From the NCBI GenBank assembly GCA_045586925.1, contig JAZNBG010000035.1:6417-70416 (forward strand): 64,000 nt of DNA, read 5' to 3'. The notes under the pieces were generated by a model that ran no database searches, was not told where the DNA came from, and saw nothing but the letters and a program-made list of their open reading frames with translations. The DNA comes from Clostridia bacterium. Lineage in GTDB: Bacteria > Bacillota > Clostridia > Monoglobales > Monoglobaceae. Of the stretch, positions 12,983-48,518 are shown piece by piece (within the stretch, counting starts at the first letter, position 1; each line of letters starts with the position of its first letter). The position numbers and the translations under genes are program-made.

Positions 12983-13034
12983 CATAAAAAACACCTTTAT
13001 TTTCCAAAAGTTGCTTTTAAATTACAAAAAACAC

Positions 13035-21140: not shown

Positions 21141-21256
21141 ACTAAGAAGTCGATATAACATTACAGATTATACTCAAACACAAATTAGTAAATCATACTT
21201 GACTAATTTATTTTTATATGCTATAATGTAGATAACCTAAAATGGAGGTCATGTAT

Positions 21257-22648: not shown

Positions 22649-22649
22649 T

Positions 22650-24737: not shown

Positions 24738-24746
24738 GAGGAATAA

Positions 24747-25901: not shown

Positions 25902-26018
25902 TGATAGTCAGATGTGTGAAGTTTTTTGATTTGCATATACCAAGAGCTCAAAAAAACATAGACTTTAGATAAGATTGATGTTTAAGTGATTGAACTCTTC
26001 TTACAGGAGGGAATATAA

Positions 26019-29552: not shown

Positions 29553-29637
29553 ATATACAAATACAACAAATCATTGACAACTTCATTATATTATTTTAAA
29601 GCAGTGGTAGAATATATACATAAAGGAGTTGTCGAAT

Positions 29638-32569: not shown

Positions 32570-32589
32570 AAGAGGTGAAAAGACAGAAT

Positions 32590-35500
32590 ATGGGCAAATA
32601 TATAGCATATTTTTACATAGACAATCAATTAATGCAATTTGATCTCGACTTGTTGCTAAATAATTGTGTTGATAATTATTTAGGTGAATCAATTCTTCCG
32701 GTAGGAAGTAAGCAACTATTTCCCATTAAAACAGAGAATAAAAAATATTACCTTTATGGGAATTTTAGCAATTGGAAAATTGTTTGTAACGGAAGTGAAG
32801 TCGGAGAAAAAGTTGAAATATCACATGGAAGTTACATCAATTTTTCATCTAAGAAAAGCTCCTATTCTGTTTTGATATCAGAAACAGCTAACTTTAGTAT
32901 ATATAATAATTGTTTGGAAATTCAAAAAAATCAGAATATCTTTATAGGTAGGGCTCCGGAGAGCAACATTGTAATAGATATTAACGATAGTGTATCAAGA
33001 AAACATGCAGCAATAAGATTAGATGCATCAGGCAATGGCTTTGTTGAGGATTTGTCACGTAAAACAGGTGTTTTCCTAAATGGAAAAAGAATTGTTTCAA
33101 GCGAAATAAAATGTGGGGACATTATTCATATAATGGGTGTGTCTATATGTTTTATGGGGACATTTCTTGTTGTTCCTAAAAATATTGTTACAAACGGGAT
33201 GAAAGAGGTCAAGTCTTTTAATGTTGCGCAGCCAACAGATAAAGAGCTTGAAGATACTTATGCAAGGACACCAAGAATATTAAAGTCATTGGATAGAAAC
33301 AAAATAATTATAGATGCACCTACACAGCCTCAAAAATCCAAACAACAACCTTTTATTCTGGTTGCGGGACCTTCTGCGACAATGGCATTAGGTATGATGG
33401 CTAGTTTTGGAGTAACTTTAGCTAATGCACTGAATGGTGGAAACATATCTTCAACTATTACCGGTGGTGTAATGGTTATAAGTATGTTGTTGGGTTCTTT
33501 AATGTGGCCTTCTTTACTTAGAAATTACACTAAAAGACAAGAAATCGCAAATGAAAAGTATAGAGTAGAGAAATATAAATACTATTTGTCGGAAAAAGAA
33601 GCAGAAATAAGAAAATCCTACGAAAGAAATTGCAGAATATGGAATGAAAATCTTTTGCCAGCACCCGATAAATTGTCTCAAATTGTTTTTGAACGAGGTA
33701 TAAATCTTTGGGAAAGAACATTTACAGATGAGGACTTTCTGCAGGTTAGACTTGGAATAGGTGCCAAATTATTTGAAACAGAAATCCAACATCCAAATAA
33801 AGGCTTTACATTGCATGATGACGCATTGATAGATGAAGCAATAAACTTAGCAAACAAATATAAAATGTTAGAAAATGTTCCAATTAGCGTATCATTAATA
33901 AACCAAAGAACAGTTGGAATAGTTGGAGAAAGTGAAAAAATACATAATACACTTAGATGTATGATTCTAAACACGGTTGCACTTCACTCACCTGAGGATG
34001 TAAAGATTTGTGTTATTTGTAATGAACTTCAAATTGAGCAGGTAGAGTGGATAAAAGATTTGCCTCATTGTTGGGATTCTGCTAAAACAACACGATATTT
34101 TGCAACTAATAATATGGAAGCACAAAGACTGCTCAATGATATGGATGAGAAAATTCAAGAAAGAGAAGAATTGATTGACAAAGATGCAATCAGAACCCCT
34201 CATACCATAGTTGTTGTTTTGGATGAAAAAGTAGTTGAAAATATACCTTTTTATAGATACTTAATTGATTCCAAAAACAATGTAGGCATATCCTCTATTT
34301 TTATTGCAGAACACTTTAATAGAATACCTAAAGAGTGTACTGCAATAATTCAAAACGAAAAAGATATATGCGGAATTTATACAAAGAATGAAAACGATAA
34401 TAGATTTGTTTGTTTCAAATCTGATGAGTTTAAACTGACGGATGCTAAAAAAATCAGTCAGAGTATGTCTGAGATTCCGGTTAAGGTTGAGAAAACAAAA
34501 CTTAGTGTTCCTAACCGTGTATCATTTTTGGATATGTATAAGGTGGGAAATATTGAGAATCTTTCAATTGAACAAAAATGGGCAAATAATATGTCAGACA
34601 AAACGCTTGCTGTTCCTATTGGAATAAAAGCAGGCGGAGAATTGTTCTGTTTGGATATACACGAAAAACACCATGGTTGTCACGGATTAGTTGCCGGAAT
34701 GACAGGCTCGGGTAAAAGTGAATTTTTACAGGCATTTATATTATCAGCATTAATTAATTTTAGTCCTAATGAAATTGCATTTGTACTGGTGGACTTTAAA
34801 GGTGGAGATATGGCTCGACCATTTTTGAAGGTTCCGCATCTTTCTGCAACTATATCAAATCTATCCGAAAATATTTTGTATAGAGCATTGATTTCTTTGG
34901 AGGCAGAAGTAAAATCAAGACAAAAAATATTTAATGAAGCCGCATCATTGTTGGGCATTGATAAAATTGATATTAATTCATACCATAAATATTTTAAGGA
35001 AGGTAGATTAACATTACCATTACCACACTTAGTAATTGTAATAGATGAGTTTGCACAATTGAAATCTCAACAACCTGAATTCATGGCTAAACTTGTTGAA
35101 ATAGCTCAGGTCGGAAGAAGTTTAGGAATTCATCTGATATTAGCAACGCAAAAACCGAGCGGTGTTGTTGATCCGCAAATATGGAGCAACTCAAGATTTA
35201 AAGTATGTTTGAAAGTGTTGGATAAGCAGGATAGTACGGAAATGATAAACAGACCGGATGCTGCTTTAATTAAATCTCCTGGACGTGCTTATGTTCAGGT
35301 CGGCTATGATGAAATTTTCGAACAGTTACAGTCAGGTTATAGCGGTGCTGATTATGTTGAACAAAAAGAGTATACAGATGATGAAGATGTAACAATAAAA
35401 CTTATAGATTCTGCTGCTATGCCAATTAGAAGCGCTCGTAGTATATCAGGAAATCTTAAGAGTGGTAAGACACAGTTAGAAGAAACTATAAATAAGATTG

Positions 35501-37239
35501 TTGAAATCGCTGATGAAAAGGGATTAAGTGTAAAGCCTTTGTGGTTGGAGCCACTAAAGGAAACAATATATCTTACAGAATGTGTTGATAAGTTATACAC
35601 AGATTCTTTCGAAATTTGTTGGGATCAAGATTTAGATATCTCAACTACATTGGGAATCATCGATATAATTGAAACACAGAAACAGATACCTTTAAATATT
35701 TCATTGCCGCAGAGCGGACATATTGCTATTTATGGTTCTTCTGGAACTGGAAAGACTACATTGTTACAAACAATTATTTTCTCGCTGGCAACAAAATATT
35801 CACCGGAACTGTTAAACATTTTTGCTTTTGATTTTGGCGGACGCAATTTAGGGAATTTATCGCTTCTTCCGCATTGCGTTAACGTAGCTTTTGGCGATGA
35901 AGAGGACAAAATTTCATATATGTTTGAGCAGATACTTGAATGTATCGAATCAAGAAAAGTTTTGTTTGCAAAAAATAACTGCGCTACATATGAATCGTAT
36001 TTAGCAACAACAAAAAATAAACTTCCTGCAGTTCTTTTGGTGCTGGATAACTATGCTATATTCAGAGAAAAAATGTTCAAGAATGAAGATGATTTAGTTA
36101 GAATTGTTGCTAATGCAAAGGCGTACGGAATATATTTGATCGTTACAGGAAATAGCAAGAATGCAATTTATTACAAAGTTTCTGAACACATATCAAATAA
36201 TATTACTTTGCGTATGAATGATAAAATGAATTACCGTGATATATTAAATGTTTCTATACCTATTGAACCTGATAATATCAAAGGAAGAGGGTTGACAGTC
36301 TTTAATAAAAAAGCGGTAGAAATTCAGGCAGCACTTCCGTTGGAAGCAGAGAACGAGGCTGACAGAGCTGAAAAGCTGAACAAAATATACACTGCTATGT
36401 CACAGGCATATAACGGAACCAATGTGGCTAGTGTTTACTCTTCTTCAACTGAAAATAGTAAATCTAATATTTCAGAAGAAAATAGTACAATTAAAACATC
36501 TGTTATTTCAACAAGGAAAGTTCCGTCAACACTTCCTATTGTTAATGCTGATGATCATACAATTGTTTGTGGTTCTTCTGTTGTAAGCGGTCAGCTTCAA
36601 GGGTTTGAAATGCGTAATACTACAAATGTATTTATAGGTGTTAATGGTTCTGAATATCCAAATCGATTGCTTGAAAGAATTATTAATTTAAACAATGCTG
36701 CATTTTACGATATTTGCTCCTCATCATCGTTAGAAGGTGAATTTATTACATCGGTAAATACGGAATCTGAAATTCATGAAATGCTTCAAAATCTCGTTTA
36801 TGAAGTTAATGATCGAGAGAGTGAACTTCAAATGTTGCAGGCTGCGAATGTCGATGATTCTGAAGTATACGGATATATGCAAAAATATAAGAGGATTTTC
36901 TTGTTGATAAGAAGTTTCTCTAAGTTCTATGATGAGATAAGTGATGATGATTTAAAATTGTTGTTGACAATGTTGAAGAAGCAACGTCATCTAGGTATAT
37001 ATATTCTCACCATAGATGATATTGAAAGTATAGAACCATATTGTGATACAGCTTTATACATTGAATTAATAAAAACCGAAAAAGGCGTTGTTCTTGGTGG
37101 CAATATTAGTGATAAACAGGCGGCTCGATTGTGTAAACAATTCTCTGAAATACCTGTTGCAGAAAGAAACAAGAAACTGTCTGATAACAATGCATTTATG
37201 TATAATGATGCAAAATGGTCAGTAATTGAAATCAATTAA
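32590..37239 (+). CDS. essC: type VII secretion (T7SSb) FtsK/SpoIIIE-family ATPase EssC/YukB-like with an N-terminal FHA domain
   Basis: FHA signature (GR...SRKHA...NG), TM helices, then three FtsK-like domains with Walker A GMTGSGKSEF and GSSGTGKTTL. Start may be GTG 32575 or ATG 32590. Confidence 0.85.
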   Translation: MGKYIAYFYIDNQLMQFDLDLLLNNCVDNYLGESILPVGSKQLFPIKTENKKYYLYGNFSNWKIVCNGSEVGEKVEISHGSYINFSSKKSSYSVLISETANFSIYNNCLEIQKNQNIFIGRAPESNIVIDINDSVSRKHAAIRLDASGNGFVEDLSRKTGVFLNGKRIVSSEIKCGDIIHIMGVSICFMGTFLVVPKNIVTNGMKEVKSFNVAQPTDKELEDTYARTPRILKSLDRNKIIIDAPTQPQKSKQQPFILVAGPSATMALGMMASFGVTLANALNGGNISSTITGGVMVISMLLGSLMWPSLLRNYTKRQEIANEKYRVEKYKYYLSEKEAEIRKSYERNCRIWNENLLPAPDKLSQIVFERGINLWERTFTDEDFLQVRLGIGAKLFETEIQHPNKGFTLHDDALIDEAINLANKYKMLENVPISVSLINQRTVGIVGESEKIHNTLRCMILNTVALHSPEDVKICVICNELQIEQVEWIKDLPHCWDSAKTTRYFATNNMEAQRLLNDMDEKIQEREELIDKDAIRTPHTIVVVLDEKVVENIPFYRYLIDSKNNVGISSIFIAEHFNRIPKECTAIIQNEKDICGIYTKNENDNRFVCFKSDEFKLTDAKKISQSMSEIPVKVEKTKLSVPNRVSFLDMYKVGNIENLSIEQKWANNMSDKTLAVPIGIKAGGELFCLDIHEKHHGCHGLVAGMTGSGKSEFLQAFILSALINFSPNEIAFVLVDFKGGDMARPFLKVPHLSATISNLSENILYRALISLEAEVKSRQKIFNEAASLLGIDKIDINSYHKYFKEGRLTLPLPHLVIVIDEFAQLKSQQPEFMAKLVEIAQVGRSLGIHLILATQKPSGVVDPQIWSNSRFKVCLKVLDKQDSTEMINRPDAALIKSPGRAYVQVGYDEIFEQLQSGYSGADYVEQKEYTDDEDVTIKLIDSAAMPIRSARSISGNLKSGKTQLEETINKIVEIADEKGLSVKPLWLEPLKETIYLTECVDKLYTDSFEICWDQDLDISTTLGIIDIIETQKQIPLNISLPQSGHIAIYGSSGTGKTTLLQTIIFSLATKYSPELLNIFAFDFGGRNLGNLSLLPHCVNVAFGDEEDKISYMFEQILECIESRKVLFAKNNCATYESYLATTKNKLPAVLLVLDNYAIFREKMFKNEDDLVRIVANAKAYGIYLIVTGNSKNAIYYKVSEHISNNITLRMNDKMNYRDILNVSIPIEPDNIKGRGLTVFNKKAVEIQAALPLEAENEADRAEKLNKIYTAMSQAYNGTNVASVYSSSTENSKSNISEENSTIKTSVISTRKVPSTLPIVNADDHTIVCGSSVVSGQLQGFEMRNTTNVFIGVNGSEYPNRLLERIINLNNAAFYDICSSSSLEGEFITSVNTESEIHEMLQNLVYEVNDRESELQMLQAANVDDSEVYGYMQKYKRIFLLIRSFSKFYDEISDDDLKLLLTMLKKQRHLGIYILTIDDIESIEPYCDTALYIELIKTEKGVVLGGNISDKQAARLCKQFSEIPVAERNKKLSDNNAFMYNDAKWSVIEIN

Positions 37240-37255
37240 ATAGGAGGTGTATAAT

Positions 37256-38044
37256 ATGAATTTTTCTGACAAATCTTTACATTTAACATATGATGAGTTT
37301 TATGCATTAATGTGTTTGTTAGGTGCAAAAAGTGTTCAAGGAACTTTTGTTGAAAATCATAATAATATATCTCCAAATGATTTCGAGAATATATGGGCAG
37401 TCTGCGAAAAATCACTGATTTCTAAAGGATATATGACATTAGACGGTGAGGATTTGCAGCTGGATATTAGTTTATATAGCATTATAACAGCATGTGTGAA
37501 TGCCGAAAGAAAATATAGTGTACAATTGTCAAAAGATAAATCCAATATTATTGATACAGTTTTTTATGATGGAAATAAGGCAATGGTATGTATCAATAAT
37601 TGTGATGAAAAGAAAGAGGTTTATTTAAGTTATTGCAATAAAAAGAAATCTTTTGATAATGTGGTTAAGGAAATTCCGGATATTACACAAAATATGCTTA
37701 ACGAAAAATCTGCTGAAATTACCCTTTCACAGCAGGAATATTTCACACTCATGTCTAGTGCTAATTTGGGGGACTATACCAAGGCTCGAAATCTATTCCC
37801 TGATGATATGGAAGAAGAATATTTAATGGATTTGATAAACACATTAAAAAATTCTTATGGGTTACTATCGGTTAATGAATTTGAAGATGAGGAAATTAGC
37901 ACTTACAGCATTTTATTTGGAAAAGAATCTTTATGGGCTATTTATGCACAGGATGAAGAAACAATATCCTTTAAATTGGTATCCAAAACTGATTTAGAAG
38001 ATAGCCTCGCGCAAACTTTTGGTTATGACGGAGGTGGCAAATAA
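37256..38044 (+). CDS. hypothetical cytoplasmic protein in the T7SS locus
   Basis: 263 aa, acidic, no TM; ATG 37256 is 8 nt after AGGAGG; overlaps the esaB start. Confidence 0.45.
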   Translation: MNFSDKSLHLTYDEFYALMCLLGAKSVQGTFVENHNNISPNDFENIWAVCEKSLISKGYMTLDGEDLQLDISLYSIITACVNAERKYSVQLSKDKSNIIDTVFYDGNKAMVCINNCDEKKEVYLSYCNKKKSFDNVVKEIPDITQNMLNEKSAEITLSQQEYFTLMSSANLGDYTKARNLFPDDMEEEYLMDLINTLKNSYGLLSVNEFEDEEISTYSILFGKESLWAIYAQDEETISFKLVSKTDLEDSLAQTFGYDGGGK

Positions 38045-38045
38045 A

Positions 38046-38303
38046 ATGACTGAAAAAATTACGTTATCGGTATGTGTACTAGGAATTAATAAAAATTGTG
38101 ATTTTTCTGTTCCGACAAATATGTCAGTTAGAGAAGCAATTAAGTTAATGAAAAAGGTGATAACCGAAGAATATTGGGGTAACTCACCTATGCCAAAGAG
38201 CAGAATGAATTTGATGAAGTTGTCTGATCTTGAGGTATTAAATGATTCATTGAGTTTTGCCCAACTCGGTATTTCAAGTGGAGAAAGATTGATTTTTGTT
38301 TAA
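38046..38303 (+). CDS. esaB: EsaB/YukD-like ubiquitin-fold T7SS protein
   Basis: ~85 aa; a beta-grasp-type pattern ending in ...LGISSGERLIFV, as in YukD (...GDRLEIL); lies directly after essC. Confidence 0.65.
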   Translation: MTEKITLSVCVLGINKNCDFSVPTNMSVREAIKLMKKVITEEYWGNSPMPKSRMNLMKLSDLEVLNDSLSFAQLGISSGERLIFV

Positions 38304-38317: not shown

Positions 38318-38614
38318 ATGGCAACGTTTAGAATTAACTATTCAAGAGTTATTTCGCAAGCTAACTCTATGAATAATTTAAGTGGCGATCTTTCTTCTGA
38401 AATACGTAGGTTAGAAAATATGTTAAGCGAAGCTCGAAGTAATTGGAAAGGTCCAGCATCAGAAACATTTCAAAGACAATTAAGTAATTTAATAGGAGAT
38501 ATGAAGAACACAAAAAGTAAAATGTCAAGTGTTTCAAGTACAATTAAGAGTGTCGCAAGAAGGATACAAGCAGAAGATGAGCGAGCTGCTGAAAGAGCAA
38601 AAAAACTGAAATAA
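38318..38614 (+). CDS. WXG100 family protein (EsxA-like)
   Basis: 98 aa helical hairpin with a central W-x-G (NWKGPASETF). Confidence 0.8.
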   Translation: MATFRINYSRVISQANSMNNLSGDLSSEIRRLENMLSEARSNWKGPASETFQRQLSNLIGDMKNTKSKMSSVSSTIKSVARRIQAEDERAAERAKKLK

Positions 38615-38632: not shown

Positions 38633-38743
38633 ATGGAAGCTGCGGCTGCAACACCGATTAATTCAGTAGCAAGTACAGTGGTACCTATAGCGGTTGCTGT
38701 GCTTGTTGGAGTGGCAATTTTCGCTTTTTTAAGGCGAAAGTAA
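38633..38743 (+). CDS. unannotated 36-aa single-TM micropeptide
   Basis: GGAGGTGG 6 nt upstream of the ATG; MEAAAATPINSVASTVVPIAVAVLVGVAIFAFLRRK has an Ala/Val-rich TM helix and a basic tail. Confidence 0.4.
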   Translation: MEAAAATPINSVASTVVPIAVAVLVGVAIFAFLRRK

Positions 38744-38809: not shown

Positions 38810-39121
38810 ATGGCAAACGCATGGTCAGTAACCACAGAAAGACTTACATCTTCTGCAAACATTTTGGAGGAAAAAGTCGCAACGTACAATTCAGAATGGG
38901 GCAAACTTTACACAGAGGTTCAGAATTTAAAATCCTCACAGTGGCAGGGTATCGCAAGTGATGCATTCAACGCAAAACTTGAGTCCTACAAAAATGATTT
39001 TGAAGAATTAGCAAAAGTATTGAACAGCTATAAAGATTTCTTGAAATCAGCAGCAGAAAGATATGAGAAAACAGAAGAAGCAGTAAAAGATGCAGCTGGA
39101 AATCTTAATGCCGGAATATAA
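38810..39121 (+). CDS. WXG100 family protein
   Basis: 103 aa; W-x-G at SQWQGIASDAF. Confidence 0.8.
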   Translation: MANAWSVTTERLTSSANILEEKVATYNSEWGKLYTEVQNLKSSQWQGIASDAFNAKLESYKNDFEELAKVLNSYKDFLKSAAERYEKTEEAVKDAAGNLNAGI

Positions 39122-39145: not shown

Positions 39146-39445
39146 ATGGCTACAATTAAAGTTGATTCAACAGTAATGAGAGACAAAGCAGGCACATTTA
39201 AGAATGTTGCTAACACAATAAAAAATTTAACAGATGAAATGACTCAGGAGATAGAAAGTTTACGTTCAGCATGGGAAGGCGAATCCGCTGAAGCAACTGT
39301 ATCAAAATTTAAAAGTTTAGCTTCAACATTTGAAGAAAAGTTCAATACAATTAACCAGTATGCATCTTTCCTTGAGGAAGCAGCTAATGCTTATGACGAT
39401 GCAGAAAAGGCTGTCGCTCAGGGAGCAGAAGGCACACAGGCTTAA
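39146..39445 (+). CDS. WXG100 family protein
   Basis: 99 aa; W-x-G at SAWEGESAEA; AGGAGG RBS. Confidence 0.8.
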   Translation: MATIKVDSTVMRDKAGTFKNVANTIKNLTDEMTQEIESLRSAWEGESAEATVSKFKSLASTFEEKFNTINQYASFLEEAANAYDDAEKAVAQGAEGTQA

Positions 39446-39531
39446 TTTGAAGTTTGATAAACACAGAGGCATATAAAATGCATATCTGAAATTATATGTC
39501 TCTGTGAAGTTTGAATTAAGGAGGTGTAAAG

Positions 39532-40791
39532 GTGCCTTACATAAAAGTTGACACAAGGAGATTATCCAACTTTGGAAATGTTGCATCTTCTACAAGAGGT
39601 AGAGTTGGTAATATAAAATCTTCATTTTCCTCTATTGGGAGTTCTCTTGATTGGGATGTAAAGGCTTGTTCTGGTATCAATAGGACAATAAGCCAAATTA
39701 ACAACGAACTTTCAGCAGAGATGTCGAGTTTAAGGAGAATTGAAACTTTTTTTGATTTGGCAGTTAGGAAATATAATGACGCCGAAAAATCCAAAGAAAA
39801 ACTATCAAAAATTCCTCAAACGAGAAGGGTAGCTACTCTTGGTCCAGGAGGTAGAATGAATAATACAACTAAAAATGTTGCATTATTATCTGTTTATAAA
39901 AATAACAAAGCCAGTATAACATCCCAGGTAAAAGTGAAAGAAAATTCCGAATGGACAAAACTTCTCAAGAAAATAGCAAAAAAAGCAGGTTTCGCTGGCT
40001 CCATTTACGGAATTTTAAGTGGAGAATCTGAAACCATTCAACATATAAAAGATGGAGAATATGCAAAAGCGATGCAGAGCTTTGCTGGAGTGGCGAAAGG
40101 TGTAATTAAAACTGTTCCAAAGATATTTGATAAATATGGAAAGATGAAAAAAGCATCCCATTTATTGACCCCTATGCAGAAATTAAAAAATTGGGGGAAA
40201 TCAATAGTTGGATTAGATGATATGATAAAAGCACCTTCAAAAGCTTCAAAAGTAACATCAAGAATCTATAATAATATGCAAAAGTTAGATATAAAAAAAC
40301 TTGGCAAGGTTACGAAGTGTGATGTTATTATAAGTAGCATTGTAAGTATTATTGGTAATGCCTCTGAATATATGGAAGGCAAGATAAGCGCTGCGAGAGC
40401 GGCAGCTGAAACCATTGGAGAAACTGTAATAGAAATTGGAAAAACCGCACTACTGTATAAAGTAGTTGGTGTTGCTGCAACTGCTGTAGCAAGTGCTGCA
40501 GGCATAGCTGCTGTTCCTGCAATTGCAGTAGCCGGTGCTGTAGTTGTGATTAGTTGGGGCATTGATAAGTTGACAGAAAAACTAACAGGAAAAAATTTCA
40601 CTGAATGGTTATCTGATGGAATAATTGATGTTGCTTCATACGTCGGCAAGTCAGTGAAACAGGTTGCAAATACTGTAGTTCCAGCAATTCGTAATACCTG
40701 TACCAATGTTATAAACAAGGCTGGTGAATTCTTCGGAAACGTAAAAAATGGCGTGAATAATTTCTTTGGAAAATTAAGATTTGCATTTTAA
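39532..40791 (+). CDS. putative T7SS-secreted effector: WXG-like N-terminal helical domain plus C-terminal glycine-zipper membrane-active region
   Basis: N-terminal ~90-aa helical hairpin ending in a YNDAEK-type C-terminal helix like Esx proteins. The C-terminus has VVGVAATAVASAAGIAAVPAIAVAGAVVVISWGI (AxxxG/GxxxA zipper). Confidence 0.45.
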   Translation: MPYIKVDTRRLSNFGNVASSTRGRVGNIKSSFSSIGSSLDWDVKACSGINRTISQINNELSAEMSSLRRIETFFDLAVRKYNDAEKSKEKLSKIPQTRRVATLGPGGRMNNTTKNVALLSVYKNNKASITSQVKVKENSEWTKLLKKIAKKAGFAGSIYGILSGESETIQHIKDGEYAKAMQSFAGVAKGVIKTVPKIFDKYGKMKKASHLLTPMQKLKNWGKSIVGLDDMIKAPSKASKVTSRIYNNMQKLDIKKLGKVTKCDVIISSIVSIIGNASEYMEGKISAARAAAETIGETVIEIGKTALLYKVVGVAATAVASAAGIAAVPAIAVAGAVVVISWGIDKLTEKLTGKNFTEWLSDGIIDVASYVGKSVKQVANTVVPAIRNTCTNVINKAGEFFGNVKNGVNNFFGKLRFAF

Positions 40792-40809
40792 AAAAAGGAG
40801 TGAATTTAA

Positions 40810-41079
40810 ATGATTAAAGATTTATTGCCGGTTGGTAGTGTAGTTTTACTTAAAGGTGGCATAAAAAAGTTAGTTATTATGGGGATTAAGCAGGCTAACG
40901 CTGAAGAACCTGATGTTGAATATGACTATGCAGGAGTAATGTATCCAGAAGGATATTTGGGAAATGATACCCTTTACCTTTTTAACCACGCTGATATAAA
41001 TGATATTATTTTTACTGGATATACCAATCCTGAACGTGATGAGTTTTTATTAGAAGTAGAAAAATTATACAATGATTAA
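40810..41079 (+). CDS. small DUF4176-like protein (candidate immunity or chaperone partner of the upstream effector)
   Basis: 89 aa, MIKDLLPVGSVVLLKGG...; this is a family I recall as recurrent in T7SSb islands; assigned from memory. Confidence 0.4.
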   Translation: MIKDLLPVGSVVLLKGGIKKLVIMGIKQANAEEPDVEYDYAGVMYPEGYLGNDTLYLFNHADINDIIFTGYTNPERDEFLLEVEKLYND

Positions 41080-41863
41080 TGCAGTTGCTTTTTCAAATGT
41101 TGGGAATATCAGGAGTAACCACGAAGACAATTATTTACTTGGCGTTGGCAACCACATTGACGAAGTGATACAGAGGCAAATGAGAAATAATCTCTACATG
41201 CAGAAATCCACCTATACGGGTGATGCAGGTGTATTTGCAGTTTGTGATGGTATGGGTGGACATGCTTCTGGAGAGGTTGCAAGTTATGCAGCTATTTGCT
41301 GGTTAAACAATAAAGCTAATTTATTGCTGAATTCTCAACCTACAGAAATAATCAGTTGCATAACAGAATTGAATTCACATATATGTAATGAAGCTGATAA
41401 ATCCTCATGTTGTAACAACATGGGAAGTACTTTAAGTGCAATGATAATCAATGGCAGAAGTATTCATACCATTAATGCCGGAGATAGCCGTATATATTCC
41501 TTTAAAAATGATAAATTATCACAGATAACTACAGACCACACTGAGGGACAGCGATTATTGGACCTTGGATTACTTACAATGAATGAGTTGCCAGAATTTT
41601 CGTCACGAAAATCGTTATATAAGTACTTGGGACGAAAGGGAGAATTGATAGCTGATGTAGTAGATATTAGTGGTAGTGATGGGTTGTATATGATCTGCAG
41701 TGACGGCCTTACGGATGCACTTAATGATTGCGAAATTGAGGGAATATTTTTAAAACGTGATTCAATTTCGGATATCGGACAAGAGCTAATGGATTCTGCT
41801 TTAGCGAAAGGAAATTTATGTGCTGATAATGTGACGTTATTATTAGTTGAAATATCTTACTGA
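41072..41863 (+). CDS. PP2C-family Ser/Thr protein phosphatase
   Basis: FAVCDGMGGHASGEVAS and downstream Asp motifs (GDSR, DGL); overlaps neighbours on both sides. Confidence 0.85.
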   Translation: MINAVAFSNVGNIRSNHEDNYLLGVGNHIDEVIQRQMRNNLYMQKSTYTGDAGVFAVCDGMGGHASGEVASYAAICWLNNKANLLLNSQPTEIISCITELNSHICNEADKSSCCNNMGSTLSAMIINGRSIHTINAGDSRIYSFKNDKLSQITTDHTEGQRLLDLGLLTMNELPEFSSRKSLYKYLGRKGELIADVVDISGSDGLYMICSDGLTDALNDCEIEGIFLKRDSISDIGQELMDSALAKGNLCADNVTLLLVEISY

Positions 41864-43653
41864 TGAAAGAAGGGATAAATTTGATAGGAAAAACCATTTT
41901 AGGTTATACCATTGAGGAAGAAATTGGTTCGGGTGGTTTTGGAACAGTTTATAAGGCTTATAAAAGGGACGAATCCGGAACATTTATTAGAGCAATTAAA
42001 CATATATCCCTTCCTACAAAAAAACAATACAACGATGTACTAAATTCAATGGGTGGAGATTATGCTAAGGCAGATAACTATTTCAATGATATATTGAACG
42101 ATCTCGTCAGCGAAATAAAGATATTATATAATCTTACAGAGCAAGGAGTTCTAAACGTTGTAAGATATACTGATCACCACATTGAGAAACAACAGAACCC
42201 TATCAAATATGATATATACCTTTCTATGGAATATCTAACACCATTTGACGAATATATCCAAACAAGCAAACTTGCGGTTAGGGATGTTATAAAATTAGGA
42301 AAGGATATTTCAGCTGCACTTATCGCTTGCCATAAGAATACCATTATGCATCGAGATATTAAAGATGAAAACATCTTTGTATCTAACGATGGCACATATA
42401 AATTAGGAGATTTTGGGGTTTCAAAAAAAATGCAAGACAGCTCAAGGGCTGAAAGTATGAAAGGTACACCTAATTATATCGCACCTGAAGTGTATTTAGG
42501 AAAAGGCAAATATGATTGCACTGTCGATATATACTCATTGGGGATTGTATTATACAAGCTTCTCAACTATAATCGTAATCCGTTTTTGCCTGAATATCCG
42601 TTGGAATACAATAGTGTAGATGAAGATAAAGCTTTTGAAATGCGTATGAAAGGAGATACGCCTCCTGCTCCGCTTAATGCAAACAATAAACTTGGCGAAG
42701 TAATTTTGAAAGCTATAAGCATTAGAGAAAATCGCTATAACGATGCAGCCGAGCTATATGAATGCTTAAATGAAATCGAAAAAAGCTTAACAAACGAGGA
42801 ACTTAATAAGGTTGTTATATCTCCAATAAAGAATATTGTTGATAAAAAGCCTGAACCTACACCACAGATTCAGAGTGACAAAAATTTAAAAGAAACTATT
42901 GGTGAAGATTATAATGTAACCAATCAGGAAGAAAAAGAGACAGGAAATGGCGCTCTTTTTGAAACTCATGGAGATGATTATACTCCTCCGGTAATAAAAA
43001 GAGAAGAGTCCCAAACAGAATCTATAGTAACAAAGGACGAAGAAGCAGAAGATTGCATAGAAGATGTTGAACAGGAAAAGCCATTAGTGAAAACAAAAAC
43101 AAGAAAGAAAACTTTGCTATATGTCGGCATGGTTTTGGCTGTATTTGTAGCATTGCTTGGATTTAAAATAGCAAACAATATAATGTCAAAAGATAATTGG
43201 ACCGGATTTAGTCATGTATATAATGTTACTGCTGAAGGAAAATATGCAGACGGAAAAAGCGAAGATGAAACAGGAGAAAAATTTGAAATAGATTCAGAGA
43301 CAATTAAAATGGCTTTGGAAGATAATATTCCTAAAAAATTGCCATTAGATCAAGAATATAACTTTGAATTTACAATATATTCACCTGATATGCCAGAGAG
43401 CATAATGGTTTTAGCCGGTAAAGGTGGCGGATATGTTAATTTCGAATATATATCTTGTGCAGAGGAAACAAGCAAGGCATATATAAAATTTCCGTGGGAG
43501 TTTCAAAGTAACCTTAATGGAGAAACTCTGTATTCCCCAGGAGAGAAAATTAGATTTAGAATTGTGGTAGAATACAGAACGAAAAACGATGATGGTTCTA
43601 CTCGTTATGAGAAAATCTATCTTGATAAAACAGCTTTAACATTAACAAAATAA
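41863..43653 (+). CDS. Hanks-type Ser/Thr protein kinase, membrane-anchored with a C-terminal extracytoplasmic domain
   Basis: GSGGFGTVYKA, AIKHI (Lys), HRDIKDEN, DFG, GTPNYIAPE; one TM helix (LLYVGMVLAVFVALLGF). Confidence 0.9.
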   Translation: MKEGINLIGKTILGYTIEEEIGSGGFGTVYKAYKRDESGTFIRAIKHISLPTKKQYNDVLNSMGGDYAKADNYFNDILNDLVSEIKILYNLTEQGVLNVVRYTDHHIEKQQNPIKYDIYLSMEYLTPFDEYIQTSKLAVRDVIKLGKDISAALIACHKNTIMHRDIKDENIFVSNDGTYKLGDFGVSKKMQDSSRAESMKGTPNYIAPEVYLGKGKYDCTVDIYSLGIVLYKLLNYNRNPFLPEYPLEYNSVDEDKAFEMRMKGDTPPAPLNANNKLGEVILKAISIRENRYNDAAELYECLNEIEKSLTNEELNKVVISPIKNIVDKKPEPTPQIQSDKNLKETIGEDYNVTNQEEKETGNGALFETHGDDYTPPVIKREESQTESIVTKDEEAEDCIEDVEQEKPLVKTKTRKKTLLYVGMVLAVFVALLGFKIANNIMSKDNWTGFSHVYNVTAEGKYADGKSEDETGEKFEIDSETIKMALEDNIPKKLPLDQEYNFEFTIYSPDMPESIMVLAGKGGGYVNFEYISCAEETSKAYIKFPWEFQSNLNGETLYSPGEKIRFRIVVEYRTKNDDGSTRYEKIYLDKTALTLTK

Positions 43654-43698: not shown

Positions 43699-45585
43699 TT
43701 GATAGGACAAACAATTTTGGGATATACAATCGAAGAAGAAATAGGTTCAGGTGGCTTTGGCACAGTATATAAAGCGAGAAAAAGTAACCAATCAGGAACT
43801 TATGTGCGTGCAATTAAACATATATCCCTTCCTACAAAAAAACAATACAATGATGTTTTGAACTCAATGGGTGGAGATTATTCGAAGGCGGACGATTATT
43901 TTTCGGATATCCTAAAAGATATTGTTGGAGAAATTCAAATATTAAATAACCTTACTGAACAAGGTGTTCGTAACGTTGTTTGGTATTATGAAAATCAAAT
44001 AGATGAGTGCCAATCTCCACTAAGGTATGACATATATATTTTAATGGAATATCTAACCCCGTTTGATGAATACATACAAGTAAATGAATTTACGGTGAGA
44101 GATGTAATAAAACTAGGTAAAGATATTGCAACAGCACTTGTTGCTTGTCATAAAAATAATGTTATACATCGTGATATTAAAGATGAAAATATATTTGTTG
44201 CAAACGACGGAACATATAAATTAGGTGATTTTGGAGTATCAAAGAAACTTCAAGACCGTTCCCGGGCTGAAAGTATGAAAGGTACACCAAATTACATTGC
44301 ACCAGAGGTATATTTGGGTAGAGGAACCTACGATAATACTGTAGATATATATTCACTTGGGATAGTGTTATATAAATTACTTAATTATAATCGTAATCCA
44401 TTTATGCCTAAATATCCTGAACCATTCAACAGCAATGATGAAGATGTTGCCTTTGAAAACAGAATGAAGGAATTAACACCAGAACTTCCTCAAAATGCTG
44501 AAAACAGTCTTGGTAACATCATTTTGAAGGCTATTGGAAAGCGTGATGAACGTTATGATTCAGCAACAGATTTTTTAGATATTCTTATGGAAACTGAAAA
44601 AAGCTTAACAAACGAGGAATTGAACAAGGTTATAATCACACCTGTAGCAAACGATAAACAGCAAACAGCAGGAACAGTGAATAAAGAAAGTAATATTCCT
44701 CTGAAAGAAACAATTGGTGAGAATTATGAGGTTACGTCAAATGTTGTTAAGGGACAAGGAAATGGGAATCTTTTTGAAACTCAAGGCGAAAAATATGTTC
44801 CACCAGTATTGCCGGATGAGCCAAAAAGGATAATTCATGAAGCAAAAGCGGAGCCTCCTAAAATAGAAACACCCAAAGAAGAAAAATATGAATATGATTA
44901 TGCTCCAAAAGGTCCTCGTACTGCACCACCAGAAGAACCGCATGTTGAACCTATTCAAAAAGGAAGTTTTGATTGGTTATTATATGCTACACCTTTTGTG
45001 ATTTTATTGGTATATATCGTATTGTTTTTCGTGTTACTACCAAAAGCTTATGATAACACAGTATCATTTATAGATTGGGCAATTAAAAATCCGCAGGATT
45101 TGCTTGAAGCGATGAAATCGTCTGATAATGTATTGCCGCCAATATATAAGGTTATTTTCCTTAAATTATTAAATATAGCGTTGTTTTCAGGGTTGGTTAT
45201 ATCGTTATATTTCATCGGAAGAAAACTTCATTTTTCTAAACCAAATTATGCATCCAATGCAACATTGATAGACAAAGAAGCTTACTATTTGTCCTTGGAA
45301 ATATACGAAGAATTAAAGGCTGAATCTATACCCAATACGTCAGATATTATATCTTCTGTAAAAGTAGTACATGACAGATTGAAAAATGATAGCTCTTTTG
45401 GTATAGGAAATCAAAGTGTGATTCGTTGCGAACAGGAAATTGAGTCACTATTAAGAGTTGTTCAGTCAAATATTGCAGGTTTGAAAAATGATAGTACATT
45501 TTCTGGCTCAAAACAGACTATACTAACTTCCTGCAACAGAATAATGGCAAAAATCAAAATGAGAACAGAGTTAAAAAAGAGATAA
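43699..45585 (+). CDS. Hanks-type Ser/Thr protein kinase, tandem paralog with a two-TM C-terminal region
   Basis: Kinase domain ~75% identical to 41863-43653 with all catalytic motifs intact; TTG start; C-terminal region diverged. Confidence 0.9.
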   Translation: MIGQTILGYTIEEEIGSGGFGTVYKARKSNQSGTYVRAIKHISLPTKKQYNDVLNSMGGDYSKADDYFSDILKDIVGEIQILNNLTEQGVRNVVWYYENQIDECQSPLRYDIYILMEYLTPFDEYIQVNEFTVRDVIKLGKDIATALVACHKNNVIHRDIKDENIFVANDGTYKLGDFGVSKKLQDRSRAESMKGTPNYIAPEVYLGRGTYDNTVDIYSLGIVLYKLLNYNRNPFMPKYPEPFNSNDEDVAFENRMKELTPELPQNAENSLGNIILKAIGKRDERYDSATDFLDILMETEKSLTNEELNKVIITPVANDKQQTAGTVNKESNIPLKETIGENYEVTSNVVKGQGNGNLFETQGEKYVPPVLPDEPKRIIHEAKAEPPKIETPKEEKYEYDYAPKGPRTAPPEEPHVEPIQKGSFDWLLYATPFVILLVYIVLFFVLLPKAYDNTVSFIDWAIKNPQDLLEAMKSSDNVLPPIYKVIFLKLLNIALFSGLVISLYFIGRKLHFSKPNYASNATLIDKEAYYLSLEIYEELKAESIPNTSDIISSVKVVHDRLKNDSSFGIGNQSVIRCEQEIESLLRVVQSNIAGLKNDSTFSGSKQTILTSCNRIMAKIKMRTELKKR

Positions 45586-45602: not shown

Positions 45603-46196
45603 ATGGCACATCAAGTAGTTGAACTGGAATGTCCAGGCTGTGGAAAACCCATAACAACAAGTACAAAACAATGCCCACAATGTTTTAGGGAGATTGTAAT
45701 CACCACCTTTAATAGTGTAGCATCTATGTCACCGTTGGATATAAACAAATATGCAAGTGCATATAGAAAAGCTTTAGCTGGAAATCCGGATAATAAAGAT
45801 TTGAACACATCAATAGCATTTTGTTACTTGAAATTAAAACTGTATGATAAAGCGTTACCTTGCTTTGAAAAAGCTATTGAAGACAATTTTGATAATTCAG
45901 AAACATATTTTTATGCGGCTATATGCCTGCTGAAAGGTAAAAAAGCATTTCTTACTCTTAGAACTGATATTGATAAGATTGAAGAGTACATACAAGCTGC
46001 AATCATGATAGAGCCTAAAGCTATCTATTATTACTTTTGGGCATATATAAGATACGATCATCATTTTAGAAAGGCGTATAATATGAGTCCAAATTATAGG
46101 GAGTTATTATCACAAGCTACACAAATAGGATTATCACAAACTGATGTACAGGAATTGTATAGTACTTTAGGAATTGACCGTCCTGCACAGTTATAA
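45603..46196 (+). CDS. zinc-ribbon plus TPR-like repeat protein
   Basis: N-terminal CPGCG...CPQCF ribbon followed by TPR-like helical repeats. Confidence 0.5.
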   Translation: MAHQVVELECPGCGKPITTSTKQCPQCFREIVITTFNSVASMSPLDINKYASAYRKALAGNPDNKDLNTSIAFCYLKLKLYDKALPCFEKAIEDNFDNSETYFYAAICLLKGKKAFLTLRTDIDKIEEYIQAAIMIEPKAIYYYFWAYIRYDHHFRKAYNMSPNYRELLSQATQIGLSQTDVQELYSTLGIDRPAQL

Positions 46197-46228: not shown

Positions 46229-47422
46229 TTGATCTGTAAAAAATGTGGAATACGATTAGAAGAAGATGCATTGTTTTGTGGCAATTGCGGAAGCAAAGTA
46301 GAACCTGATTCTGCTAAAACCGCGGTTGAGGATTCAAGTCATGAGTTTGTTTACCCAGAGATACCTATGCCTTCAAAAACAACAACGGTAAAGAGGAAAA
46401 ATAACATGTTGATTCCAATAATATCAATTTCTGTTGTTGCTATTGTTCTAATTGTAGCTTTGATATTATTTTTACTACCAAAATTTTTGAATACTAGTGA
46501 AGATGTGGGCACAGATGTTACAACACAGGATGTTATAACAAAAACAGAAGATTTATCTGATTCCTCTTCAAGTACTGAAAGAACAGAAATAGAAGATAGT
46601 GAAATCAGAAATATTATAAATCAATATTCAAACTACACCGATTTTGGTATATATGTTCATAATTTAAACAATGATTATGAATATGGTTTTAATGATGATT
46701 CTGTGTTTTTAGCTTCTGCTATGTGTCAGGTTGTAATATTAGATACCTTATCAAGAACTGTAGAAGATAACAATATAGATATTAATCAGGAGGAACTATA
46801 TTTTAGCTATATACCTAATGGTAAAGAAGCTCCTACGAGCAAAAATGAATCTGACACATATATAAATTTAAAAAAATGCATAGAAGATGTTGCAGTCTAT
46901 GGAGATAATAACAAATCTAATCATATCGTCGATTATATTGGACAAGTCAATAATGTTAACAATGGATTTGACGTAATAAACAATATGCTTAGACGTAACG
47001 GATATACAGATACACATATTAACAGGAAAACTTTTATTAATCCGGATTATATTGATAATAGCGTACCTGCTAATACGACTACTCCAAGCGAAATAGCAGA
47101 TATATTTGAAAATCTAATCAACAACGGCGGATTTGGAAATAAAAATTATATGATGAACATATTCAAATCTGTTGCACTTGATGGACAACCTATAGGCTTG
47201 AAAAAATGTGTGCCTGCGTATTACGATATTTGCAATGTAAATGCTTTGAACTCGCAATCCACTAACAATGTTGCTATTATTAGCGATGGTAATACGGAAT
47301 TAGCTATTGCAATACTATCAACAACCGATGAATCAAAAACTGATGTAGAAAATAACGAAGATCGTGAAATTGTTATAGCAGAATTAATGAAATACATATT
47401 AGATACACAGTTTGAAAATTAG
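46229..47422 (+). CDS. zinc-ribbon / TM / beta-lactamase-like ectodomain protein with degenerate catalytic motifs
   Basis: CKKCG...CGNCG ribbon, one TM, then a domain similar to 47432-48445 but lacking SxxK (ASAMCQV) and a clear KTG. Confidence 0.45.
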   Translation: MICKKCGIRLEEDALFCGNCGSKVEPDSAKTAVEDSSHEFVYPEIPMPSKTTTVKRKNNMLIPIISISVVAIVLIVALILFLLPKFLNTSEDVGTDVTTQDVITKTEDLSDSSSSTERTEIEDSEIRNIINQYSNYTDFGIYVHNLNNDYEYGFNDDSVFLASAMCQVVILDTLSRTVEDNNIDINQEELYFSYIPNGKEAPTSKNESDTYINLKKCIEDVAVYGDNNKSNHIVDYIGQVNNVNNGFDVINNMLRRNGYTDTHINRKTFINPDYIDNSVPANTTTPSEIADIFENLINNGGFGNKNYMMNIFKSVALDGQPIGLKKCVPAYYDICNVNALNSQSTNNVAIISDGNTELAIAILSTTDESKTDVENNEDREIVIAELMKYILDTQFEN

Positions 47423-47431
47423 AGGTGTGGA

Positions 47432-48445
47432 ATGAATAACGAAAGATTAGACCGAAAACAAAGAAAAGTACGAAAAAAGAGATTGTTTATGGTTAAGGTA
47501 ATTGCATTCATTCTTTTTATCGTTATAGTTTTTATTGCAGGATTTTACTTTGGTAAAACATATAGCTCTAAAAGCATTCCAGTAGCAAATTTTGACAATG
47601 AATATTCTGAGGAAAAGAGCAAATTAACTGATAATTCCGATGAATTTGATAAATTAAACATTTTAAAGACGGATTTAGTTAGTATTATGAATAACAAATA
47701 TCCTACTGTAGATTTGTCCTTTGCAATCAAAAATCTTGATACGGGTGCTATGGTAGTACATAATAACAAAAAAATGAATAGTGCAAGCATAATTAAATTA
47801 TTCATTTTAGAAACTGTATATAATGAAATTATTCAAGGTAAGTATGTGCTTTCCGAGGAACGAGAAAAAGAATTGGAAAAAATGATTACGGAAAGTGATA
47901 ATAACGCTGCCAACAACTTTATAGATGACTTTGGTGGACAAAATGAAAAGCGTAAGGTTGATGAAACTAATTTAATTAATAAAACAATAAAAGAAAAAGG
48001 ATATTTGTTTACTGAATTAAATCGAAAAATGCATGATAAAACACCACCAGAAGGTCCGTCGGGATATCAGAATTATACCTGTGTCGAAGATGTATGTAAA
48101 TTCTTAGAAGGAATATACAACAAAACTCTTTTTGAAGAACCATACAATACATATGCTTTAAATTTAATGAAAAATCAAAAAAGAAGAGCCAAAATCCCTG
48201 CTATGATAACAGACGAATATAACGATGTTATAGTTGCAAATAAAACTGGTGAGTTGTCCCAGGTGGAAAATGATGCAGCAATAATAATGAGTGATGATTT
48301 TAACATTATATTTGTGGTATTAACTGATAACATACCATTCAAGGCGGATGGTACAACTGATTATGATTTAAAAGAAGAAGTTCAAAAAACCATTTCTAAA
48401 CTAGGGTTAAAGGTTGTTGAATTTTATAATGCAAATCAGTTTTAA
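47432..48445 (+). CDS. membrane-anchored class-A-beta-lactamase-fold serine hydrolase
   Basis: One N-terminal TM; SxxK (SASIIK), SDN (ESDNNAANN) and KTG (NKTGE) motifs. Confidence 0.6.
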   Translation: MNNERLDRKQRKVRKKRLFMVKVIAFILFIVIVFIAGFYFGKTYSSKSIPVANFDNEYSEEKSKLTDNSDEFDKLNILKTDLVSIMNNKYPTVDLSFAIKNLDTGAMVVHNNKKMNSASIIKLFILETVYNEIIQGKYVLSEEREKELEKMITESDNNAANNFIDDFGGQNEKRKVDETNLINKTIKEKGYLFTELNRKMHDKTPPEGPSGYQNYTCVEDVCKFLEGIYNKTLFEEPYNTYALNLMKNQKRRAKIPAMITDEYNDVIVANKTGELSQVENDAAIIMSDDFNIIFVVLTDNIPFKADGTTDYDLKEEVQKTISKLGLKVVEFYNANQF

Positions 48446-48518
48446 GCTTAAAACGCAACTTGACAAAAAATTAGTTCTGACAACAAAACAAAATATATAA
48501 AACAAAGGAGAATAAATT

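Follow-up and report, generated by a model that had tools for sequence, protein, structure and literature searches.

Knowledge of the toxins of type VII secretion systems (T7SS) comes almost entirely from LXG proteins found in streptococci, staphylococci and bacilli. The question considered here is raised by a T7SS locus in a stretch of 64,000 nucleotides (nt) from a Clostridia bacterium of the family Monoglobaceae (assembly GCA_045586925.1, contig JAZNBG010000035.1, positions 6,417 to 70,416), which is called the window below. Behind the secretion genes lies a gene for a protein of 419 amino acids (aa), for which searches of Pfam, NCBIfam and PDB sequences gave no meaningful match, and behind it a gene for a protein of 89 aa. 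What does the larger protein do, and what is the smaller one for? In a preliminary description of this DNA the pair was put forward as a pore-forming T7SS effector with a cognate immunity protein or chaperone. It is judged here, with slightly better than even confidence and jointly with the mechanism proposed below, that a non-canonical T7SS of an uncultured gut Clostridia lineage has the 419-aa protein as its locus-encoded cargo and that the 89-aa protein is the cargo's dedicated chaperone, of the DUF4176 family.

The cargo gene and its neighbour

Both open reading frames (ORFs) lie on the + strand where they were first described. The cargo gene (39532..40791) opens with GTG, 6 nt past a ribosome-binding site, AAGGAGG, at 39519-39525; this start is supported because relatives begin with MP(Y)IKV at residue 1, as is seen in about 90% of 151 relatives. 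The 89-aa ORF (40810..41079) has an ATG start with an AGGAG site upstream, and its distance from the cargo stop, at first reckoned as 19 nt, is 18 nt.

Relatives come from the Hadza human gut, the roe deer rectum and a Ruminococcus metagenome-assembled genome (MAG). Among the close homologs (n=14) the first 95 residues are almost invariant and divergence sets in afterwards. When the window is compared with the related locus L001, the cargo shows 51% identity overall, made up of 84% in the N-terminal domain and 40-45% in the remainder, against 80-96% for the operon neighbours (an extra kinase paralog excepted); the cargo is the most divergent gene of the operon in this comparison.

The N-terminal targeting domain

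Residues 1-90 (39532..39801, +) make up a helix-turn-helix domain of WXG100 type. AlphaFold2 run with 60 homologs placed helices at 8-38 and 49-90 with a predicted local distance difference test (pLDDT) score of 85-97, so the Esx-like N-terminal hairpin of the preliminary description is borne out. With only 14 sequences the model was unusable (pLDDT 37); with 60 the N-terminal domain was resolved and the C-terminal module was not. The relationship to WXG100 proteins is clearest inside the locus. Aligned by hhalign with WXG100-C, one of three WXG100 proteins encoded just upstream, residues 1-93 of the cargo fall on residues 1-95 with 96.5% probability (E 1e-9), the cargo Trp pairs with the Trp of the WXG turn, and the motifs of both proteins also align. 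In a six-frame search of the window, a hidden Markov model (HMM) of the domain matched, beyond itself, WXG100-C (1.2e-5) and WXG100-B (3.9e-4) only. Foldseek against the PDB put EsxB, EsxA and GBS1074 at the top (target-normalised TM-scores of 0.6-0.8), matches that are not significant, with E above 2; a profile of the domain against the PDB brought up chance coiled-coil matches only. The Pfam threshold of PF06013 is not reached by the window protein and is weakly reached in two of 112 relatives.

A literal W-x-G is absent from the turn, which reads L39-D-W41-D-V (LDWDV, aa 39-43, 39646-39660); Trp is kept in 91% of sequences and Gly is replaced. The conserved positions of the domain are the MP(Y)IKV start, the LDWD(V/I) turn, F73, A77 and an invariant Y81. 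The last of these opens Y81-N-D-A-E85 (39772..39786, +), a motif resembling the YxxxD/E export signal at the end of helix 2 and marked out by family conservation: Y81 is present in all 151 family N-domains and D or E stands at position 85 in 131 of them. Conservation of the domain stops at about residue 90. The LXG domain of Pfam (PF04740, about 200 aa) gave no match at E 1 or better to the window protein, nor any to the 112 relatives. Judged from these sequence features, it is concluded that the cargo N-domain is a WXG100-type hairpin with a YxxxD/E signal, the signal role being predicted, and not an LXG domain.

The domain is not confined to close homologs. A 95-residue profile finds at least 411 cluster representatives (50% identity) at E 0.001 or better, 156 of them at 1e-10 or better, and in nearly all of the 411 the match begins at or near residue 1. 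The N-domain thus marks out a family, so far unannotated, that numbers at least 411 clusters at the 50% level. One member, in a Pfam scan of the 112 relatives, carries a lipase-like Mbeg1 domain.

The payload

The C-terminal module (aa 262-419, 40315..40788, +) is the putative membrane-insertion part of the cargo. It consists of an acidic helix (AETxxET), a hydrophobic hairpin, a helix with the motif TExxSD and, last, an amphipathic tail closing with aromatic residues (FFGKLRFAF). The hairpin is a helical Ala/Gly/Val-rich stretch of 44 residues (aa 305-348, 40444..40575, +) with a central Pro329 (40516-40518); Ala, Gly and Val make up 69% of residues 311-346 and Kyte-Doolittle hydropathy exceeds 1.6 over 307-348. 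The tail is amphipathic, as was expected from the start, with a helical hydrophobic moment above 0.5 across about 360-390. In a 23-sequence alignment N276, E293, E297 and P329 are invariant, the first three of them being carried by the AETxxET helix, and P329 is conserved at 90% or more across 60 sequences. Among 121 full-length family representatives the module profile matches 48, in every case close to the C-terminus, and this conservation, with the invariant residues, indicates that its features exceed chance. An equivalent hydrophobic segment of about 40 residues, usually Pro-kinked, occurs in 89 of the 121 (about 74%). The pLDDT of the module is 24-44, a very low confidence, as expected where folding requires a partner or a membrane.

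Database searches of the module itself were sparse in result. It has no Pfam match, and its profile search of the PDB returned chance coiled coils, with colicin A and S4 at E 3-4.5, which are not taken as evidence. Word-indexed homology searches with the C-terminal region gave nothing for the single sequence and only two already-known proteins for the profile. Tails of relatives weakly match families of lipid-surface helices (ApoC-I, Phasin_2, YtxH and CsmC). The hairpin of the homolog P0007, which is 43% identical to the window protein, matches Pfam DUF6861 with 29.3 bits (cut-off 28); P0014 scores 17.5 against the same cut-off, DUF6861 is matched at E 0.001 or better in two of 112 family members, and the window protein itself has no DUF6861 match at E 1 or better. 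From composition and conservation, insertion of the C-module into a membrane is a well supported prediction. That the cargo forms a pore or depolarises its target would be a reasonable inference by analogy with known T7SS toxins.

Between handle and module lies a Lys-rich helical middle domain (aa 140-228, 39949..40215, +; AlphaFold2 helices 140-226, pLDDT 64-82). The Lys-rich character first ascribed to the middle of the protein holds, lysine making up 16% of residues 96-290 with a net charge of about +32. This domain, and not the hairpin, carries the canonical extended glycine zipper A152xxxG156xxxG160xxxG164 (AGFAGSIYGILSG, aa 152-164, 39985-40023, +). Under the strict definition of PMC12744356, (G/A/S)xxxGxxxG or GxxxGxxx(G/S/T), motifs begin at 152, 156 and 160; in the cargo they are confined to 152-168 and 186, and they are found at the same middle position in the close homologs P0005 and P0007. 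In the distant relatives P0009, P0011, P0013 and P0014 canonical GxxxGxxxG runs lie inside the equivalent hydrophobic segments. Behind the middle domain follows a low-confidence amphipathic stretch (aa 229-261, 40216..40314, +), with a hydrophobic moment above 0.5 at 227-253 and pLDDT below 50 at 230-264; its SKASKxxxRIYNNxQK motif is conserved in P0002-P0008. Possibly this stretch is a second contact for the chaperone.

The small DUF4176 protein

The 89-aa protein matches Pfam PF13780 with 86.3 bits (cut-off 25, E 1.5e-24) over 73 of 74 profile positions, and its residues 4-76 match PDB 9DCS at E 9.8e-9. At 89 aa it falls in the small class of DUF4176 proteins (70-130 aa) as delimited in PMC12478183. 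Proteins of this family, also named Ltc or Lcp, are needed for the stability of LXG toxins in the cell and for their export (PMC12478183, PMC12482557). TelD, a membrane-depolarising toxin, requires the small DUF4176 protein whose structure is 9DCS, and the authors of that work speculate that small DUF4176 proteins bind the membrane-inserting helices of toxin domains (PMC12478183). In Streptococcus suis there is one DUF4176 group per type of toxin C-terminus, and a pore-forming LXG toxin is stabilised (PMC12482557); for the pore-former TelE of S. gallolyticus, the DUF4176 protein LcpE confers stability on the middle and C-terminal regions (bioRxiv 10.64898/2026.03.12.711312). Since experiments have found that the family keeps T7SS toxins stable ahead of their export, the 89-aa protein counts as a chaperone candidate of the Ltc/Lcp kind rather than an immunity or housekeeping protein. 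Of the two roles first offered for it, chaperone is the one retained, while immunity has precedent against it; the worry that it could belong to an unrelated housekeeping family is removed by its membership in a family of T7SS toxin chaperones.

The coupling of the pair can be followed through related loci. A DUF4176 gene stands 3' of a hairpin-type cargo in 10 loci, with one gene for a protein of two transmembrane (TM) segments intervening in L010; the L005-type DUF4176 protein is 40% identical to that of the window. Across 10 loci, and with the cargo split heuristically into regions, DUF4176 identity follows that of the cargo C-module (Mantel rho 0.83, p 0.0006), less so that of the middle region (rho 0.47, p 0.03), and not that of the N-domain (rho 0.16, p 0.26). 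Plain Spearman coefficients with flanking genes are weak (PP2C 0.22, WXG100-C 0.25, WXG100-B 0.05). DUF4176 thus tracks the C-module and not the handle or the flanking genes, which fits a chaperone that would recognise the payload rather than the handle.

Other occupants of the cargo slot

In two related loci the same handle is joined to an enzymatic or polymorphic toxin. L009 has the SPFH protein, EssC, the YukD-like protein and three WXG100 proteins in the order of the window, and its slot before the PP2C gene is filled by a 1611-aa fusion of the N-domain to RHS. L004, from the Ruminococcus MAG and with a different T7SS gene order, encodes a 475-aa protein in which the N-domain is followed by a Gly-rich hydrophobic region and a TNT NADase. 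Since an RHS toxin occupies the same slot in L009 and a TNT fusion exists in L004, the handle is taken to be an effector-targeting domain. The RHS, TNT and Mbeg1 payloads and the divergence of the cargo are the signature of a modular, diversifying secreted effector and not of a machine part. The assignment as a T7SS effector therefore stands, since the gene follows EssC, a YukD-like gene and three WXG100 genes, the N-terminus is homologous to WXG100 and bears YxxxD/E, and fusions to RHS and TNT occur elsewhere.

Genes beside these cargoes differ from those in the window. The RHS toxin gene of L009 is followed by one for a 3-TM DUF6560 protein (12849-13379), and in L010 the gene between the hairpin-type cargo and DUF4176 encodes a 2-TM protein of 166 aa (8336-8836); both products look like immunity proteins. 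The TNT toxin gene of L004 is followed by one for a 183-aa DUF4176 protein (11393-11944) with an extra N-terminal domain of about 80 residues.

Points against the effector reading and the alternatives

Several results weigh against a membrane-active effector with a dedicated chaperone. The preliminary description had seen an Ala/Gly/Val zipper in the hydrophobic segment. The segment is indeed hydrophobic and rich in Ala, Gly and Val at 311-346, but a motif scan found no strict glycine zipper in residues 300-350, and the four small-xxx-small triplets of 311-346 were equalled or exceeded in 1996 of 5000 shuffles, so that composition suffices to explain them. Neither the cargo nor its C-module showed homology to TspA, TelE, EsxX or any solved toxin in the searches of PDB chains, and structure searches of the cargo gave nothing beyond generic helical hairpins. 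The Mantel correlations come from only the 10 loci and the heuristic split named above. A single-copy cargo in a fixed slot, with a hairpin architecture in about 74% of the family, would also fit a component of the machine or an accessory to it. Lastly, no polytopic or other immunity gene adjoins the cargo and DUF4176 genes, the stop of the latter overlapping the PP2C start.

The first alternative is that the cargo is a non-toxic, T7SS-dependent membrane accessory, either a secreted translocon or channel or a part of the cell's own membrane or surface that delivers other cargo, with DUF4176 as an insertion chaperone. The single copy and fixed slot in every related locus, the dominance of the hairpin architecture (89/121) and the want of an adjacent immunity gene would all suit such a part; the conserved acidic residues beside the hairpin suggest a specific structure and not a generic lytic peptide, and some membrane parts of the system are unaccounted for, as no EsaA/EssA/EssB-type components were found by Pfam in the operon. 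A core part should not, however, be replaceable by a toxin, and in L009 the RHS toxin sits in the slot, while the stretch of that cluster covered by the reading encodes no protein of hairpin type. The TNT toxin of L004 bears the same N-domain, the cargo is by far the most divergent gene of its operon, unlike machine parts, and DUF4176 proteins are so far known only as toxin chaperones. An accessory of this kind is considered unlikely.

The immunity gap itself deserves attention. T7SS membrane toxins such as TspA, EsxX, TelE and TelD have polytopic and/or DUF5085 immunity proteins nearby (PMC12478183, bioRxiv 10.64898/2026.03.12.711312, PMC12744356). At the window locus no immunity gene of the DUF443, DUF5079/5080 or DUF5085 kind is present, and DUF4176 also runs directly into PP2C in L001, L005, L006 and L011-L015. 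This gap keeps three rivals alive: a membrane accessory or translocon, a non-kin or host target, and DUF4176 as neutraliser. It could mean that DUF4176 suffices for self-protection, or that the cargo is a delivered translocon or a host-directed pore. Candidates for an immunity protein within the window are a 36-aa TM ORF at 38633-38743 with counterparts in five related loci, a polytopic zinc-ribbon protein at 48519-49976 and a YidD fusion at 50764-51294.

If the cargo were a membrane-active effector against non-kin, for instance the membranes of host epithelia or protists, or bacteria of another envelope type, protection by DUF4176 would be enough and no membrane immunity would be needed. Such a target would agree with the lack of a membrane immunity gene in nine of the ten hairpin-type loci and with the origin of the relatives in gut samples, and EsxX illustrates that cytoplasmic and extracellular protection are separable. 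The protein has, however, no eukaryote-targeting domain, RHS and TNT as occupants of the slot are typical antibacterial polymorphic toxins, and the 2-TM protein between cargo and DUF4176 in L010 resembles an immunity protein. A non-kin target is held to be quite improbable.

The third alternative concerns the smaller protein, which may neutralise the toxin as an immunity protein beyond stabilising it. It is the sole cargo-specific gene of the locus and co-evolves with the payload; in addition, the soluble cytoplasmic ExiAB proteins of EsxX neutralise that toxin by sequestering its zipper (PMC12744356), and a hairpin-binding chaperone would likewise mask the toxicity of its client within the producer. 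In the systems studied, on the other hand, deletion of DUF4176 abolishes toxin accumulation and export and does not lead to self-intoxication, and separate immunity proteins exist. A cytoplasmic protein, moreover, cannot stop a toxin that arrives from outside. DUF4176 as the immunity protein proper is regarded as very doubtful, and the reading of an effector with its chaperone is followed below.

Proposed mechanism

The course of events for such an effector and its chaperone can be proposed as follows. The whole cluster would be transcribed as one operon. The N-terminal hairpin with Y81xxxE85 would then pair with WXG100-B and/or WXG100-C into a helical bundle to be recognised by EssC; the WXG100 homology and the conservation of the motif come from the comparisons above, and the pairing is suggested by analogy with EsxA/EsxB and with LXG-Lap complexes. 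In the cytoplasm DUF4176 would bind the aggregation-prone C-module, that is the hairpin and perhaps residues 229-261, keeping it soluble and off the membrane of the producer. Family membership and co-evolution with the C-module point this way, and binding is predicted on the strength of experiments with TelA/TelB, TelD, TelE and the LXG1-CT3 of S. suis. The cargo would presumably be exported without its chaperone. Outside, the Pro-kinked Ala/Gly/Val hairpin may enter the target membrane, with the acidic helices and the amphipathic tail lying at the interface, and the target membrane might thereby be permeabilised or depolarised.

The secretion operon

The gene order on the + strand is SPFH-zinc-ribbon protein, EssC, a 265-aa protein, YukD-like protein, WXG100-A, -B and -C, cargo, DUF4176, PP2C, two kinases, TPR protein and further genes. 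A single operon is inferred because gene spacing is tight or overlapping and no + strand terminator is predicted from 30.5 to 46.5 kb. The SPFH/Band-7 protein with C-terminal double zinc ribbons (31433-32569) lies directly 5' of EssC, a position kept in L001, L005, L006, L009 and L010. EssC (32575..37239) is the motor of the T7SS, an FtsK/SpoIIIE-type ATPase (Pfam FtsK_SpoIIIE 5e-61) with an N-terminal FHA domain (1.4e-15). Between it and the YukD-like gene stands the gene of a soluble 265-aa protein without a family match (37247-38044); its occurrence is restricted to the window, L001, L005 and L013-L015, and since L006 and L009-L011 lack it, it is seen as a lineage-specific accessory. A 238-aa gene after the cargo in L008 was considered as a displaced form of it and rejected, BLASTP finding no similarity.

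The YukD/EsaB-like ubiquitin-fold protein (38019..38303) has a Pfam YukD E-value of 3e-4, which is below the cut-off; its orthologs in related loci are 84-86 aa long and two of them are marked YukD. Because homologs have this length and the listed TTG start overlaps the 265-aa gene, the true start is probably the ATG at 38046 (85 aa). Directly after it, in a conserved position, comes WXG100-A (98 aa, 38318..38614, Pfam WXG100 E 2e-12), which is probably the core equivalent of EsxA/TsxA. WXG100-B (103 aa, 38810..39121, E 6e-14) is conserved directly upstream of the cargo in those related loci whose sequence reaches there and is a candidate Lap-like co-secretion partner. WXG100-C (99 aa, 39146..39445, E 2e-14) starts with MATIKVD, has the motif AYDDAE, and is a candidate partner as the closest paralog of the cargo N-domain. 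WXG100-B and WXG100-C, both conserved and placed immediately before the cargo, score as plain WXG100 and not as Lap families.

In the gap between WXG100-A and WXG100-B an unannotated single-TM ORF of 36 aa was noticed on the + strand (MEAAAATPINSVASTVVPIAVAVLVGVAIFAFLRRK, 38633-38743). Counterparts in the same gap are peptides of 36-40 aa in L001, L005 and L015, a 58-aa 2-TM protein in L014, and membrane proteins of 77 aa and 145 aa in L013; L006 and L009-L011 lack the ORF, which could encode a machine part like TsxH/K or be an immunity candidate. As an immunity protein it was largely set aside, left with low probability, for the type of peptide is the same in L005 and L015 though their cargo types differ.

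Downstream of the pair the PP2C phosphatase gene (41072..41863) begins in overlap with the DUF4176 stop; two TM Ser/Thr kinases (41863-43653 and 43699-45585) continue the operon and a TPR protein (45603-46196) follows, all on the + strand. This gene order is also found in L001, L005, L006, L009 and L011-L015. The first kinase is the extra paralog, 50% identical to the single kinase of L001, to which the second is 88% identical. Taken with the FHA domain of EssC, the phosphatase, the kinases and the TPR protein suggest that secretion is controlled by phosphorylation.

Relative to L005, and apparently to L001, three genes are inserted between the TPR gene and a 219-aa gene (46229-49976, +). They encode two membrane-anchored Beta-lactamase2-like proteins, one of them with an N-terminal zinc ribbon, and the 485-aa polytopic zinc-ribbon protein; zinc-ribbon membrane proteins recur in L004 and L009. 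In the YidD fusion named above (+ strand) the domain is preceded by about 110 extra residues that include two TM segments, and genes for YidD, a membrane-protein insertion efficiency factor, also form the end of the cluster in L005, L006 and L007.

Comparison with known systems

The nearest functional parallels are the membrane-permeabilising LXG toxins of T7SSb, namely TelE of S. gallolyticus, EsxX and TspA of Staphylococcus aureus, TelD of S. intermedius and LXG1-CT3 of S. suis. Like them, the window protein is a T7SS cargo that opens with a helical targeting domain, has two small WXG100-like helical genes upstream and bears, towards its C-terminus, a short hydrophobic segment rich in small residues. 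A DUF4176 gene is the neighbour here, and for TelD, TelE and LXG1-CT3 a DUF4176 chaperone is needed. The handle, in contrast, is a 90-residue domain of WXG100 type with YxxxD/E and not an LXG domain of roughly 200 residues, the partners are plain WXG100 proteins and not DUF3130/DUF3958 or DUF5344/DUF5082, the secretion system is apparently not T7SSb, and searches of PDB chains detected no sequence similarity. The hairpin lacks a strict zipper and the locus lacks a DUF443, DUF5079/5080 or DUF5085 immunity gene. By analogy, the locus would work after the paradigm of TelE, TelD and LXG1-CT3 with DUF4176, while it falls outside both the LXG family and strict glycine zippers. The MSE-ExT effectors of S. 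suis (PMC12558993) were considered as a match and dismissed; they belong to a different system, one with YeeF-derived NADase fragments.

The 89-aa protein resembles small DUF4176 proteins (9DCS, MQE10_09270) in Pfam match, size, position next to a T7SS cargo and matching to the C-terminal type of that cargo. It differs in that its gene directly follows a non-LXG cargo with no immunity gene present, and in that the host system is a kinase- and phosphatase-linked T7SS variant of Clostridia and not a streptococcal or staphylococcal T7SSb. The handle shares with WXG100/ESAT-6 proteins and with mycobacterial-type YxxxD/E substrates a helix-turn-helix of about 90 residues, a Trp in the turn, YxxxD/E directly after helix 2 and linkage to EssC/EccC; unlike WXG100/ESAT-6 it has LDWD(V/I) in place of WxG, is fused to a 330-residue payload and on its own is below the PF06013 threshold.

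The description of DUF6861 is that of a membrane domain with a glycine zipper, placed N-terminal to toxin domains (Ntox15, TNT, EndoU and CdiA-tRNase). A Gly/Ala-rich membrane segment in a polymorphic-toxin setting is common to both, and the P0007 hairpin lies just above the Pfam cut-off, but DUF6861 precedes an enzymatic toxin whereas the window module is the C-terminal end of its protein.

As regards the system as a whole, FHA-EssC, a YukD-like protein, multiple WXG100 proteins, a membrane Ser/Thr kinase, a PPM/PP2C phosphatase and TPR recall T7SSe/j of Garrett, Higginson and Palmer 2024 (PMC11217815). In contrast to subtypes c-j of that paper, no large Ig-like TsxI or DUF6382-FHA TsxJ was found here by Pfam, and an SPFH/double-zinc-ribbon protein always stands before EssC; the paper mentions neither SPFH nor DUF4176. 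Compared by gene content, the window cluster does not match any gene set given there.

Genomic surroundings

The whole T7SS cluster lies, together with defence genes, in a low guanine-cytosine (GC) block from about 20000 to 56000, with 30-38% GC (mostly 31-35%) against 40-44% in most of the flanks. Recombination genes in this block are a resolvase (28234-28908) and two tyrosine recombinases (29629-30477 and 52675-53535), and in L006 and L007, too, an integrase lies before the cluster. A scan of the window for tRNA genes as island borders found none. The block is possibly a mobile island. Its defence cluster (21242-27585, +), upstream of the T7SS locus, comprises an ATPase_2/DUF234 protein that matches the PADLOC candidate PDC-S27 (21242-22648), an N6 DNA methylase with its specificity subunit (22650-25901) and the Kiwa pair KwaA/KwaB (26019-27585), all on the + strand.

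Significance

With this locus, as a tentative and less than probable claim taken in all its parts, a large class of T7SS cargo from uncultured gut Clostridia (at least 411 clusters), so far entirely unannotated, may be described for the first time. In this class a handle of WXG100 type with YxxxD/E would replace LXG, and the commonest payload would be a new membrane-insertion domain of about 135 residues that co-evolves with a small DUF4176 protein and comes without a dedicated immunity gene. The host would be an undescribed subtype of T7SS composed of SPFH, FHA-EssC, YukD, three WXG100 proteins, cargo, DUF4176, PP2C, kinase and TPR. The main added value is seen in the size of the unannotated family, in the reach of DUF4176 past LXG and T7SSb, and in the apparent absence of immunity.

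The locus suggests that gut Clostridia, abundant and uncultured, load interchangeable payloads (a membrane module, RHS, TNT or a lipase-like domain) by way of a shorter handle onto a T7SS regulated by kinase and phosphatase. If this is true, chaperoning by DUF4176 extends beyond LXG toxins and beyond T7SSb. The compact pair of genes offers a test case for two matters: whether small DUF4176 proteins shield membrane-inserting helices, as was speculated in PMC12478183, and whether the lack of an immunity protein is compatible with a membrane-active T7SS cargo. For the family at large, the N-domain provides a means of annotating more than 400 dark protein clusters from gut metagenomes.

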